Notes under the pieces: model-generated
The model's input: only the letters and a program-made list of their open reading frames with translations
The model's database searches: none
What the model was told of the DNA's origin: nothing
In this document: positions 35,110 through 38,710 of the stretch, in pieces
Layout: each line of letters opens with the position of its first letter
How positions within the stretch are numbered: position 1 is the stretch's first letter
Position numbers and translations under genes: made by a program
IMG/VR virus record: IMGVR_UViG_3300008448_000052
Reading direction: 5' to 3' (one strand)
DNA: 64,000 nucleotides
Source of the DNA: a virus

Positions 35110-36651
35110 TTAACTTAAACTGGTACCTAATCTTGATTTAATATTTGACCATGTATCTTTATATACTAGTTTACCATCTTCAAACACTGTTGTCAACATG
35201 TTATATGACACATCTAGGTCTTTTAGTGCTATTTGGTCTTTAGTGACAATGAGTCCAGTTTTAGGGTCTTCCATCACTATGACGCCGCCCTTATTAGACT
35301 TTTTAGTGCCACTGTCTGTTTTAGGGTCTTTGTAAATGTGGTGTTCTTTACCATCAACAACTACTAAAGTAGCTTTCATGGCAAACCCAAAAGTATCTCT
35401 TGTTACATATTGATATGTATATGAACCAATGCCATATACACAATTGATGGATGCAAAGCCTTTAGCCTTTAAACCTTCACAAATGGCTTCCATTCGAGCT
35501 AAAGTGATGCTGTCACCATAAATGGCACCAATGTGTTCATCAAGCACCTTAAAGCCTTTAGAGCTTTCTGTGCCACCAAAAATAGTCCACAATGATTCAA
35601 TGAGTCCCATCTTCTCCCATTTATTTTCAGCATCAGGGTTGCCTACTAAAACCTTGACTGGGTCACCAGAATCAGGACGAATGACTAACTTGCCATTGCG
35701 CTTCATGATAATGCTTTTCATTTCGGTGTCTGGTAAAATGTTACCAATGACGTTCCAAAAATCCCAAGTGTCAGATACAATTGAAATGATGCCAGTAGGG
35801 TACAGTTCAGTTAAAAATCTTTTAAATGTAGCTTTTTCATCCATGCCATTGGCGCAAATGCATGAGTGTTCTGCTGCGGGCACTGAGCAACCCACTAGTT
35901 CTTTTTCAACATTAGCACCATAATACTTTTCAGCACCTAAAATGGCTGGTATGGTGTCTGTGCCCACAAACGACATTAAATGACCAATGCCAGAAGATTC
36001 GGCATCATGTAGTCCTGATAAGCCTCTCATTGAAAAGTCGTGACCTTGGAACGGTACGAAGCTTGTATCACCTACTGTTTCCATAGCATACTTGTTTAAA
36101 ATGGTGCGAGCTTTGTAGGCTGTAGTGGCAGATGTACTCATTTTCCAAAGTTCACTAGATAGTAAGGTTTCTAAGTAGTTTGTTAACCAGAAGAAACGTG
36201 GTTCAGTGTTCTCAATAGTCATAATGGGAGTTCTTAGTGGAACAACTGTGCCTTCACGTAAAGCCTTGATTTTAATAGGTAAATAGCCTAAATCGTGTAA
36301 TTCTTCAATGTGAGTAGTTTCTGGATTTTCTACTCCTAGTGTATACTTAACTATACGCTTATATTCAGCAACAACTTGTTCTTTAGCTACACCAAAGAAA
36401 TAGTCGTTAAAAAATCCAATAAGATATTCTTGAACAAACTTTTGAAAGCCAGCAACTACGACAAAGTCAATGTTTTCGATAAGAGACCTACGAGGTACCC
36501 AAGTGCTGTAAACTTTTTCAGTTTTTGGTAAGTATTGGACGCGATGTGAAAGCTTGTAGAAATCACATAATAGCATAGCATTTAAATGTGTTGTATTTTT
36601 TTGTGAGCCTTTATAGGCGCTTTCGTTCATGATGTTTTGCGTTGGGTTCAT
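35110..36651 (-). CDS. nicotinamide phosphoribosyltransferase family protein (NadV / Namat-like)
   Basis: DFYKLSHRVQYLPKTEKVYS, FVGTDTIPAIL, GCSVPAAEHSCI blocks are characteristic of NAMPT. Confidence 0.8.
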   Translation of the reverse strand: MNPTQNIMNESAYKGSQKNTTHLNAMLLCDFYKLSHRVQYLPKTEKVYSTWVPRRSLIENIDFVVVAGFQKFVQEYLIGFFNDYFFGVAKEQVVAEYKRIVKYTLGVENPETTHIEELHDLGYLPIKIKALREGTVVPLRTPIMTIENTEPRFFWLTNYLETLLSSELWKMSTSATTAYKARTILNKYAMETVGDTSFVPFQGHDFSMRGLSGLHDAESSGIGHLMSFVGTDTIPAILGAEKYYGANVEKELVGCSVPAAEHSCICANGMDEKATFKRFLTELYPTGIISIVSDTWDFWNVIGNILPDTEMKSIIMKRNGKLVIRPDSGDPVKVLVGNPDAENKWEKMGLIESLWTIFGGTESSKGFKVLDEHIGAIYGDSITLARMEAICEGLKAKGFASINCVYGIGSYTYQYVTRDTFGFAMKATLVVVDGKEHHIYKDPKTDSGTKKSNKGGVIVMEDPKTGLIVTKDQIALKDLDVSYNMLTTVFEDGKLVYKDTWSNIKSRLGTSLS

Positions 36652-36671
36652 TTTATTCCTTTTGTTTTGTT

Positions 36672-37244
36672 TTATTCAGTATATTTTCTATCTGGGTATT
36701 TGTAGATGTCACGTTTACTCATAATGGCATGAACTTCATCCAATGATATGGGTTTCATATTATGAACGTCTACACCAACATCTAGTATTTTTTTATTCTT
36801 TATTGGGCCTTCATAAGATAAACTACCATGACTATGTCCATGTAGCATGTATGAACCTCGGTGACAACTGTTCCACTCAGCCATTGGGTAATGACTAAGA
36901 CAAAGTAATTGTTTATTAACATTAAGTTCTTTATAATAGCTAAATGTTTTAAAAAATGCTTTCACATTATCATTGTCCATGTTTTTGTCATGATTGCCCT
37001 TAATGAAATGTAAATTCTTACACTTAATGCGTCTAAGGATATTAGTCATGTTTGACCACCCGCCAATGCCAAAGTCGCCTAAATGATATAATTCATCAGT
37101 AGGTTTTACTAAGGTATTAATGTTTTCAAGCATTAACTCGTCCATTTCAGTAGCATTTTGAACTGGTCTATCACAATAGTCTATAATTTTATGATGACTA
37201 AAGTGAGTATCTGATATAAAGTAAATCATAATGGCAATTTCCAT
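36672..37244 (-). CDS. metallophosphoesterase (small calcineurin-like)
   Basis: ISDTHFSHH, HLGDFG, GNHD, HGHSH motifs. Confidence 0.7.
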   Translation of the reverse strand: MEIAIMIYFISDTHFSHHKIIDYCDRPVQNATEMDELMLENINTLVKPTDELYHLGDFGIGGWSNMTNILRRIKCKNLHFIKGNHDKNMDNDNVKAFFKTFSYYKELNVNKQLLCLSHYPMAEWNSCHRGSYMLHGHSHGSLSYEGPIKNKKILDVGVDVHNMKPISLDEVHAIMSKRDIYKYPDRKYTE

Positions 37245-37420
37245 TTTCTTTTAAACCTAATAAGTATTTGTCTAATTCTCTCTCTAGTAATATTATGACG
37301 TTTAGCTAATTCTTCAAGAGTATATCCTTCTATTTCATATCTTATAAATATATCACTACTTCGATCATTTTGATCTAAGATTTTTTTATAAATAGTTTTA
37401 GCGTCTATAATTTCTTCCAT
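37226..37420 (-). CDS. free-standing sigma-70 region-4-like HTH protein
   Basis: 64 aa; YTLEELAKRHNITRERIRQIL resembles sigma region 4.2 (TLEEVG..VTRERIRQIE); AAAGGAA SD. Confidence 0.5.
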   Translation of the reverse strand: MEEIIDAKTIYKKILDQNDRSSDIFIRYEIEGYTLEELAKRHNITRERIRQILIRFKRKWKLPL

Positions 37421-37440
37421 AAAATTCCTTTAAATAAAAA

Positions 37441-37509
37441 GAACGAGGAGGGACTTGAACCCTCGACCCTCGGACGAATCCGAACTCTAACCAACTGAGT
37501 TACTCGTTC
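37441..37509 (-). tRNA. tRNA-like element with non-canonical anticodon arm (UUCG tetraloop)
   Basis: Minus-strand 69-mer GAACGAG..ACTC-AGTTGGTTA-GAGT..TCGGA-TTCG-TCCGA..GAGGG-TTCAAGT-CCCTC-CTCGTTC: perfect acceptor, D and T arms (GTTCAAGTC T-loop) but a 4-nt loop where the anticodon loop should be; no encoded CCA. Confidence 0.5.
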
Positions 37510-37675
37510 ATATAAAACACACTAGTGAAGCTTTCCCGCATTAACATATAAGCCAATGCACCTACGCAATGTAACCCGACGTATCTTCGTGAGGGAACTG
37601 TCAAAAGGAAACTCTGAATAGTTTTAACCCTTTTGCATTACATTCTCACCTTATTCAGAAGACTAGTGTATATAT

Positions 37676-37704
37676 AGTATACAATAATGACTACTATTTG
37701 TCAA
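37676..37704 (-). promoter_or_regulatory. consensus sigma70 promoter TTGACA-17-TATACT (minus strand)
   Basis: rc of 37699-37704 = TTGACA, 17-nt spacer, rc of 37676-37681 = TATACT; points at the tRNA-like element and the downstream operon. Confidence 0.55.
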
Positions 37705-37901
37705 CGTCTTTTAAGTAAAAGAGCTAAGAATATTAAAATGAATAGACTAGTAAAGCCGCCCCAAATTGGCATTGTTACCCAAAACCACGACAAATCTATA
37801 TAACCAGTCAACTTAAGTCCAATAAGTAATATGGCTAATAAACCAAAGAAACCAATGCCGCCTGAGCCTTTTTCATTTTTAATTAATTCTTTAGCTTCCA
37901 T
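37701..37901 (-). CDS. small two-TM membrane protein
   Basis: 66 aa with two hydrophobic helices; downstream of and coupled to the Prs-like gene. Confidence 0.4.
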   Translation of the reverse strand: MEAKELIKNEKGSGGIGFFGLLAILLIGLKLTGYIDLSWFWVTMPIWGGFTSLFILIFLALLLKRR

Positions 37902-38710
37902 TATTTCTTATCTCCTGTGTTTTGTATCATTGAACCATGATAGTTGTAAACTTCGTCTAAACCGTTAATGTGTAAATGTTCTATACCCTTAGAATAAATA
38001 CCATGAGTTGTGTATAATGCAACCTTATTAGCTCCAGACTCTTTTAATAGTTTTGCAGCCGCAATGAATGTTGCGCCGCCATCACATAAATCGTCTACTA
38101 TAAGAATAGTTTTACCAGTTAAATCAATGGGAAACTTGTGTTTATATTTTAAACCTTCAATGGCACCAGTTTCTTGATTACGTTTCTTTTCTAGAATGAT
38201 AGGGGCTCCATAGTATTCTTCATCATATTGATAGCCACGAGCCGCCGCACCAGCATCAGGAAAACATACATAGTCAGTATTCGATTGTTTTAACACTTGT
38301 TGAATTCTAGGTGAAGGATTTATGTTAATAATGCTAGGCATTATAATGTCTTTAACAGCTTTTATATTGTGCATGTCCACTGTTGTAATGCTTTCAAATA
38401 CTTGACCCATAAGTCTTAAAAAAGGATATAGCGCAAACGTAGACGTGTTTGTTGTAGTTTTGTCTTGACGCGCATAGGGTAGTGTATCACAAAATAAATT
38501 TGCTTTTTTATTAGTTAAAGTAAGTAATAGGTGACCCAATTGATATAGGTGAAAAATTTCCGCTTCATTTTCAAATTTGTATTGAATTCTTACTTCATCT
38601 TTTTGTTTAGGCGCAGGGTTTAAATGCCATGCTTGTGAAGTGCCATCAGGAAATTTAGTAATTTCAAATTCAATAAGTTGTCCAGTCGTCTCGTTAGTAA
38701 TGATAATCAT
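37901..38710 (-). CDS. ribose-phosphate pyrophosphokinase (Prs)-like / Adps-like phosphoribosyltransferase-fold protein
   Basis: ILIVDDLCDGGATFIAAAKLL PRPP-binding loop of type I PRTases; 269 aa with an N-terminal Prs-like half. Confidence 0.6.
   Translation of the reverse strand: MIIITNETTGQLIEFEITKFPDGTSQAWHLNPAPKQKDEVRIQYKFENEAEIFHLYQLGHLLLTLTNKKANLFCDTLPYARQDKTTTNTSTFALYPFLRLMGQVFESITTVDMHNIKAVKDIIMPSIININPSPRIQQVLKQSNTDYVCFPDAGAAARGYQYDEEYYGAPIILEKKRNQETGAIEGLKYKHKFPIDLTGKTILIVDDLCDGGATFIAAAKLLKESGANKVALYTTHGIYSKGIEHLHINGLDEVYNYHGSMIQNTGDKK

Follow-up and report, generated by a model that had tools for sequence, protein, structure and literature searches.

A predicted NARP1 pair, split by accessory genes, in a tailed phage known from metagenomes

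Two nearby genes on a 64-kb stretch of viral DNA (IMG/VR record IMGVR_UViG_3300008448_000052; hereafter the window, to whose full length all coordinates refer) raise the question of which route to NAD+ they encode. One specifies a 269-aa protein that resembles ribose-phosphate pyrophosphokinase (Prs), the other a 513-aa protein of the nicotinamide phosphoribosyltransferase (Nampt) family. An earlier note, made from the DNA letters alone, had proposed them as a candidate NARP1 anti-defence module, bundled with the genes that lie between them. NARP1 consists of the enzymes Adps and Namat and was described from the phages SPbetaL1 (Bacillus) and Bas63 (Escherichia) (Osterman et al., bioRxiv 10.1101/2024.02.11.579819; 9W5W/9W5X, PMC12774641). 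It counters defences that deplete NAD+, namely SIR2-HerA, type I Thoeris, DSR1/2 and SEFIR, and according to the literature it occurs in ~4% of sequenced phages. Here we explore whether the window pair belongs to this system and whether the intervening genes take part in it. We find that the two genes are very probably an Adps/Namat pair and, as judged at the sequence level, a bona fide NARP1 member of an uncultured tailed phage.

The mechanism is carried over by homology from the SPbetaL1 and Bas63 enzymes. A SIR2-, TIR- or SEFIR-type effector of the host would split NAD+ into ADP-ribose (ADPR) and nicotinamide. With ATP, Adps would pyrophosphorylate ADPR at its free ribose, and in the resulting ADPR-PP Namat would exchange the pyrophosphate for nicotinamide, yielding NAD+ directly and without an adenylyltransferase for nicotinamide mononucleotide (NMN), hereafter Nmnat. 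For the window pair we infer both reactions, the co-expression of the genes and their role against host defence. The rival explanation is classical salvage, by which a genuine Prs and a NadV/Nampt enzyme would make phosphoribosyl pyrophosphate (PRPP) and then NMN, and NadR or NadD/PncC of the host would complete NAD+. The pair would then be a metabolic booster and would not recycle ADPR.

Assignment of the two enzymes

The 269-aa protein matches PF14572 (8e-10), PF00156 (1.1e-08) and phrog_619 (1.7e-52), and its PRPP loop reads ILIVDDLCDGGAT. The names that Pfam, PHROG and NCBIfam attach to this protein and to its 513-aa partner agree with classical salvage; the scores on the NCBIfam models point elsewhere. 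On TIGR01251 (cut-off 113 bits) the protein reaches 104.6 bits, SPbetaL1 Adps 106 and E. coli Prs 422.7, and on a second Prs model (cut-off 296) it reaches 105.8 bits and E. coli Prs 532.6. This pattern is like that of the characterised SPbetaL1 Adps and unlike that of E. coli Prs. Pairwise identity, ~30% to SPbetaL1 Adps and 22-27% to Prs, does not decide between the two, and a tree was therefore built.

A neighbour-joining phylogeny of 57 sequences was calculated from 252 columns with Kimura distances and 200 bootstraps. The ingroup of 46 comprised the window protein, six phage proteins encoded next to Namat, among them the characterised SPbetaL1 Adps and the Bas63-type Felixounavirus protein, and 39 metagenomic homologues. 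Eleven Prs were included, from E. coli, Acinetobacter, Sinorhizobium, Bacillus, Phocaeicola and Streptomyces, together with three plasmid paralogues and two archaeal PDB sequences. All 46 Adps-type sequences were monophyletic with respect to the 11 Prs in 200/200 bootstraps, and 98.5% of replicates joined the window protein to its nearest metagenomic relatives. Lysine K162, the catalytic residue of SPbetaL1 Adps, the K162A mutant of which is inactive according to the NARP1 literature, aligns with K175 of the window protein; K175 and R177 are invariant across 28 Adps sequences. The position in the Adps clade, the scores below the Prs cut-offs and the retained lysine support the assignment of the 269-aa protein as a predicted ADP-ribose pyrophosphokinase and not a Prs. 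This bears out the earlier note, which had read the Prs-like protein as a possible Adps and had proposed a phylogeny, in which clustering with genuine Prs would have spoken for the classical route; no such clustering was seen. Classical salvage also sits poorly with the report that SPbetaL1 Adps makes ADPR-PP from ADPR and no measurable Prs-type product.

The 513-aa protein matches PF04095 NAPRTase (2.2e-40), PF18127 NAMPT_N (1.6e-07) and phrog_448 (1e-196). Compared with all PDB sequences it scores 649 bits (3.8e-194) to 9W5W/9W5X, 494 bits to 9KE8, 242-244 bits to human, rat and mouse Nampt (1e-70; human 244) and 213-223 bits to Xanthomonas Nampt. Entries 9W5W/9W5X were taken as SPbetaL1 Namat on the grounds of their residue numbering, which agrees with D13/Y15, and of the citation of the entry in PMC12774641. 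SPbetaL1 Namat is also the top match in 50,697 phage records (2026 matching), with 58.8% identity. In the alignment with this enzyme 16 of the 17 contacts to nicotinamide and NAD+ outside the clamp are identical (D13, Y15, F189, S190, R192, D215, A242, R306, D308, G360, D361, G390, S391, T398, R399 and D400). The seventeenth, A362, is replaced by Ser, as it is in most Adps-linked homologues, and the AEH region with the catalytic His is retained.

Namat is defined by a conserved Nampt-like core and an adenine 'selectivity clamp' (PMC12774641). The clamp motif SCH is found in the window protein as GSYTYQYVTRD at residues 409-419, with Y411/Y415 at the clamp aromatic positions F392/Y396, and it matches the Namat-only consensus published in PMC12774641. 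Nampt-type helices have different sequences, such as GGALLQKVDRD in Xanthomonas and GAQTYQRNTRD in 9KE8. A negative control was available in locus L014, where a transferase encoded beside an Adps-clade gene has the Nampt-type helix GGLLLQQHNRD and scores nearly equally to Namat and Nampt (337/313/295/260 bits). Because this control does not discriminate, the difference between the Namat and Nampt scores of the window transferase is truly discriminating. The contrast also means that the published SCH signature cleanly separates true Namat from a look-alike. Namat enzymes do retain measurable PRPP-to-NMN activity in vitro (PMC12774641), which would accommodate classical salvage, but the Namat-specific SCH motif speaks against it. 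Together the bit scores, the SCH motif and the conserved contacts support the reading of the 513-aa protein as specifically Namat-type, a predicted nicotinamide ADP-ribose transferase, and the earlier suggestion that the NAMPT-family gene is of this type stands.

Further NAD+ genes were sought by a Pfam scan of 38 window open reading frames (ORFs), which are essentially every plausible gene of at least 125 aa outside the structural block. Domains CTP_transf_like (Nmnat), Nudix, Macro, PnuC and NadR were found in none of the 38. Metagenome contigs carrying end-proximal window ORFs were used to extend the search, and among their called genes past both window ends there is no Nmnat or other NAD+ gene. 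Past one end they encode terminase, portal and lysozyme, past the other (right) end a PolyA_pol-family gene, a second metallophosphoesterase (MPE) and an Rnl2-like ligase. The remark of the earlier note that the window lacks an NMN adenylyltransferase holds for every ORF scanned, and such a gene elsewhere in the genome, which it had named as a sign of the NadV/NatV route, did not appear in the contigs past either end. In 94% of the genomes with a PRPP-using phage Nampt an Nmnat is encoded as well (literature), and none was found here. Given this, the Adps clade and the SCH motif, we regard classical salvage as very improbable.

The two enzymes also keep the expected company. In 80 diverse Adps loci of IMG/VR, retrieved by an alignment-based scan after a scan with a single protein had given no matches, a Namat homologue lies within 8 kb of Adps in 75; in the literature the vicinity of Adps to Namat is put at 97%. 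In the window both genes lie on one strand and within the ten-gene vicinity used for NARP1.

Several points nevertheless weigh against the assignment of the pair to NARP1. In the clamp loop (SCL) the window transferase has Leu57, in PRRSLIEN, at the position of the stacking residue Arg40 of SPbetaL1. The lack of this Arg, which would also fit classical salvage, might weaken the preference for ADPR-PP. SCL is described as variable, with Arg, Lys or Tyr expected as third residue (PMC12774641); the same Leu is seen in three other Adps-linked homologues (KKP_3916, L007 and L008), and nearby Arg55/Arg56 might act as a substitute stacking residue. The 269-aa protein is just 28-31% identical to the reference Adps compared, of which SPbetaL1 Adps is the sole one assayed in vitro. 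The tree is a neighbour-joining tree with only 11 Prs as outgroup, and its ingroup was mostly retrieved by similarity to the query. For about 10-20 kb of the phage genome the evidence is limited to Pfam hits precomputed for other contigs. Finally, a strong predicted promoter separates the two genes, so that co-regulation of the pair is not required.

Layout and transcription of the locus

The ORFs described in the earlier note are all present and all on the minus strand (Table 1), and one ORF, of 66 aa, is added to its listing. In the direction of transcription the order is the adps-like gene, the 66-aa ORF with two predicted transmembrane segments, the promoter, the tRNA-like RNA, the helix-turn-helix (HTH) gene, the MPE gene and the namat-like gene. 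A gap of 1.25 kb, with four ORFs and one RNA gene on the same strand, thus lies between adps and namat.

Table 1. Features of the locus and of other regions of the window (positions on the 64-kb stretch)
Feature	Position	Strand	Description
adps-like gene	37901-38710	minus	269 aa, predicted ADP-ribose pyrophosphokinase, NARP1 enzyme 1
two-TM ORF	37701-37901	minus	66 aa, ATG overlapping the adps stop (TAATG)
promoter TTGACA-17-TATACT	37704-37676	minus	predicted, near-consensus sigma-70-type, 11/12 matches
tRNA-like RNA	37440-37509	minus	70 nt, Rfam tRNA 50.8 bits
sigma-70 region-4 HTH	37226-37420	minus	64 aa, PF04545
metallophosphoesterase (MPE)	36672-37244	minus	185-190 aa, PF12850/PF00149
namat-like gene	35110-36651	minus	513 aa, predicted nicotinamide ADP-ribose transferase, NARP1 enzyme 2
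Acb2/Tad1-type ORF	31651-31872	minus	73 aa, likely cyclic-nucleotide sponge
SPFH/Band_7 gene	38815-40224		upstream of adps
kinase-MPE-ligase fusion	41516-43879	minus	787 aa
NTPase, ThiF/E1-like and JAB-like trio	45732-48893	minus	495, 261 and 314 aa
ClpP-family protease and phosphoesterase-domain protein	23377-25283	minus	221 and 418 aa
Mom-like gene	28437-29204	minus	PF25680

The earlier note had placed the pair in one transcription unit under a consensus early promoter. One strand is shared and no convincing terminator was found in the sequence between adps and namat, which makes a single unit plausible. The promoter exists and is the top-scoring sigma-70-type site across 7 kb (34400-41400). 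It lies, however, downstream of the 66-aa ORF and upstream of the tRNA-like RNA, between the two NAD+ genes, and it cannot drive adps; a single unit is therefore plausible and no more. The namat-like gene has a good Shine-Dalgarno sequence, AAAGGAA, 5 nt ahead of the ATG.

As in the SPbetaL1 and Bas63 systems, the window thus holds both enzymes on one strand, within 1.25 kb and with no Nmnat found. It differs from SPbetaL1, Staphylococcus phage G1, Felixounavirus and P778, in all of which the two genes are adjacent or overlapping, in that its pair is split by four ORFs, an RNA gene and a predicted strong promoter. Most likely this insert is accessory cargo specific to the lineage.

The other phage systems for NAD+ restoration are NARP2, which combines Nampt with a bifunctional Nmnat/Nudix in Vibrio phage KVP40, and NARP3, which combines PnuC with NadR in Bas30 (PMC13464706). 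NARP1 and NARP2 have never been found together according to the literature. The window transferase is homologous to that of NARP2, but it carries the Namat and not the Nampt motif, Adps is present, and neither Nmnat nor Nudix was found; from NARP3 the window differs by the lack of PnuC and NadR domains among the scanned ORFs.

The genes between adps and namat

The start codon of the 66-aa ORF overlaps the stop of adps, and translational coupling to adps is read from this overlap. The ORF belongs to phrog_1374 (4.7e-17) and has no Pfam match. Its homologues were found only in relative L007, where one lies directly upstream of the MPE gene, and weakly in L091, and it is not a general NARP1 partner. 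The HTH scores 36.7 bits on PF04545 Sigma70_r4 (cut-off 24.1), in agreement with its earlier description as sigma-r4-like; no homologue was found in any relative locus retrieved.

The MPE matches PF12850/PF00149 above cut-off and phrog_547 with 9e-53. Its likelier start is 37229 (185 aa), where ATGA overlaps the HTH stop, in agreement with the gene call and with homologues. Motif residues D12, H14, G56-D57, G83-N84-H85, H118, G136-H137 and H139 are invariant in 50 homologues. An AlphaFold2 model (pLDDT 96) is nearest to Aquifex aq_1665 (1xm7), which is of unknown function, with weaker matches to LpxH, Mre11, MJ0936, the ligase-associated nuclease MPE and lambda phosphatase; the structure comparison gave no ADPR-specific relative such as ADPRibase-Mn. 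The window MPE shares its fold and all metal-binding motifs with the MPEs of the aq_1665/phrog_547 family, which is widespread in large phages, and with PdeM (PDB 6NVO). It departs from PdeM in scoring 23 bits on the PdeM model, for which the cut-off is 150, and no family member close to it has a known substrate.

Could this enzyme be a third component of NARP1? In an extended NARP1, the MPE would turn a non-canonical product or signal derived from NAD+, for example an ADPR-cyclic phosphate, a phosphorylated ADPR or a cyclic ADPR (cADPR) isomer, into ADPR for Adps. Inserted genes have twice proved to be such feeders. In NARP1-AP of Vibrio phage Gary the Macro-domain phosphatase Adpp, encoded between Adps and Namat, converts ADPR-1''P to ADPR (bioRxiv 10.64898/2026.01.28.702374), and in the NARP1 locus of mycobacteriophage DyoEdafos the RyR-domain glycosidase RyDEP converts cADPR to ADPR (bioRxiv 10.64898/2026.05.28.727677). 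The window resembles both in that an extra gene, and as in NARP1-AP one of hydrolase type, is inserted in NARP1. Its insert, unlike that of NARP1-AP, is a calcineurin-like metallophosphoesterase, and no Macro domain was detected in the window (tblastn with five NARP1-linked Macro proteins gave nothing, best E = 0.25). Nor is there a RyR domain (PF02026) in the window, the inserted enzyme having another fold and another chemistry.

The same position of the MPE, between adps and namat, is found in relatives L007, L008/9 and L013, with 49-56% Adps identity, and in L187; it lies directly upstream of namat in the window and in all of these except L013. The active site is intact, and LpxH, the closest structural neighbour with a characterised function, cleaves a nucleotide-sugar pyrophosphate. 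These observations would fit a feeder. In the relatives with the same order, however, synteny extends across the entire region (PDDEXK, ERF), which leaves the conserved order with little weight.

Wider surveys did not favour a feeder. A tblastn search with a fused MPE and Namat query found the MPE adjacent to a Namat/Nampt gene in 4 of 50,697 phage records, though ~641 carry both. In the 80 diverse Adps loci an MPE of the window type was present within 8 kb in five, at distances of 2-7 kb, which is about chance for one copy per ~90-kb genome, and it was never between the pair; Macro genes, by comparison, lie near Adps in 13. In the converse survey of 80 diverse MPE loci of IMG/VR, NARP1 was nearby in two; genes for ATP-dependent DNA/RNA ligases and other ligase-type genes, often at a distance of a few kb, were nearby in 15, and tRNA genes in 27. 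In Pseudomonas phage 16Q, which has the closest MPE homologue of any isolate, an SPFH gene and an RNA ligase adjoin the retained MPE, while Nampt is reduced to a 58-aa fragment. A literature link between NARP1 and metallophosphoesterases was not found, nor any paper on 1XM7 or 9KE8. By the adjacency search and the two locus surveys the MPE was rejected as a general NARP1 partner.

Locus L014, a contig of JGI 3300068071, has at 4326-8193 the order MPE, Macro, 95-aa ORF, Adps-clade gene and transferase, an operon that could represent either a variant of NARP1 or an intermediate that differs in its use of substrates. Its MPE, adjoining Macro and Adps, was considered in favour of the feeder role and rejected, as it belongs to a different subfamily without significant similarity and is not independent support for the window family.

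Our conclusion is that the MPE probably stands outside NARP1 as an independent accessory phosphodiesterase, and that the feeder role is unlikely. Just as doubtful is the accompanying suggestion that the co-transcribed HTH and an anticodon-less derivative of tRNA-Cys, described below, would time or stabilise expression of such an extended NARP1. The idea that the MPE, the HTH and the tRNA-like RNA are bundled with the pair thus survives as a description of their position between the two genes; one functional module with NARP1 is not supported by the adjacency search or the locus surveys. Were the MPE a feeder, this phage lineage could overcome a defence that plain NARP1 cannot.

Rfam assigns the RNA to the tRNA family with a score well above its gathering score of 29, whereas ARAGORN made no call, since the anticodon loop has only 4 nt. 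Opposite the loop CTGCAAA the alignment has TTCG and a gap of four columns, so that a UUCG tetraloop caps the 5-bp stem, which is intact. An encoded CCA is missing, with a T-run in its place, and the other arms are intact. In relatives this position is taken by a normal tRNA-Cys(GCA) gene that encodes its CCA, and the acceptor and D arms are common to the tRNA-Cys gene of L013; by this alignment the RNA is derived from tRNA-Cys. The window has no other gene of tRNA type. Either a pseudogene of recent origin or a structured RNA put to a new use, such as a decoy, a terminator or a processing signal, would account for it. Over 3.6 kb the three copies on metagenome contigs are 100% identical, which allows no choice between the two. 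A second, independently diverged copy without anticodon was not found, and L187 has no tRNA at that spot.

Relatives of the phage encode Ro60/TROVE proteins, which prompted a comparison with YrlA. A mimic of the YrlA/Y-RNA type was rejected, because the open acceptor stem and capped anticodon stem are the reverse of the YrlA topology. The Ro60/TROVE-vWA genes lie at 3576-5141 in L007 and at 3671-5365 in L008, in the place taken upstream of the window adps by the SPFH/Band_7 gene. L008 has a second tRNA-Cys call overlapping the start of the TROVE gene, and both relatives also encode Amidoligase_2/GATase genes.

The company that the MPE keeps suggests another role. Probably it is a nucleic-acid or nucleotide phosphodiesterase of the type associated with phage ligases and tRNA clusters. 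We tentatively consider that the MPE, the tRNA-like RNA and the HTH form a separate unit, driven by the internal promoter, which would serve in RNA/DNA end repair with phage ligases and would merely have landed between adps and namat; this may well be so, though we hold it with some reserve. Immediately downstream of the promoter comes the tRNA-like RNA, and the start of the MPE gene overlaps with the stop of the HTH gene. In L007, L008 and L013 the MPE follows a tRNA gene, as it does in L031, whose MPE stands outside the NARP1 pair. The phage devotes much to RNA repair, with a kinase-MPE-Rnl1 fusion of 787 aa, the Rnl2-like ligase and the PolyA_pol/CCA-adding-like gene. The MPE family co-locates with ligases, two distant homologues on phage contigs of >200 kb lying 1-4 kb from RNA/DNA ligases, and it resembles the ligase-associated nuclease MPE and PdeM. 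The association is modest, however, with ligases in 15/80 loci and an upstream tRNA in 10/80, both without a matched background. Moreover, tRNAs and auxiliary genes cluster in accessory regions of phages anyway, and the lack of family members with a known substrate, like the unknown function of the closest structure, counts against a separate repair unit as well.

Phage context and neighbouring genes

No near-identical DNA was found in cultured phages by megablast. The window PolB is at most 28% identical to that of any isolate (Salinibacter and Nostoc phages), and the exact window Adps protein is present on metagenome contigs of NCBI and JGI. The lineage is known solely from metagenome and SRA-derived assemblies and has no cultured relative.

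NARP1 is published and common, and the window instance is a genuine and ordinary one that adds no new principle. New is its presence in an uncultured lineage of this kind, as is the observation that Adps and Namat can be split by accessory cargo and an internal promoter with both genes retained. There is also a lesson for annotation, as a phage 'ribose-phosphate pyrophosphokinase' next to a 'nicotinamide phosphoribosyltransferase' is to be read as Adps/Namat when clade and motif agree. The MPE as feeder and the anticodon-less tRNA derivative are the only threads with any novelty, and both are no more than suggestions. The MPE inside the operon, the tRNA-Cys derivative and an Acb2/Tad1-like sponge are best regarded as cheap leads and not as findings.

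The minus-strand block around the pair looks like an auxiliary or counter-defence region. The 73-aa Acb2/Tad1-type ORF lies 3.2 kb downstream of namat, which is consistent with such a region. It scores 30.4 bits on Acb2_Tad1_hairpin (Pfam gathering 27) and is likely a cyclic-nucleotide sponge against CBASS or Thoeris. The block further includes the kinase-MPE-ligase fusion, the SPFH gene, the ThiF/E1-like and JAB-like genes and the Mom-like gene.

Among the other genes, the 787-aa fusion joins a P-loop kinase, a metallophosphoesterase and a T4 Rnl1-type ligase in an architecture like that of bacterial Pnkp. The Rnl2-like ligase, an MPE of 225 aa and the PolyA_pol/CCA-adding-family gene past the right window end occupy 9145-12874 of contig L107. 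The trio of adjacent genes, an AAA/nSTAND3 NTPase (495 aa), a ThiF/E1-like protein (261 aa) and a protein with a weak Prok-JAB match (314 aa), resembles in its domain content a gene set for ubiquitin-like conjugation and deconjugation. The ClpP-family protease gene adjoins the gene for the 418-aa protein with a calcineurin-like phosphoesterase domain. The Mom-like gene, assigned by a precomputed hit on L004, is directly upstream of the DNA polymerase gene and just after a DnaB-like gene in transcription order.

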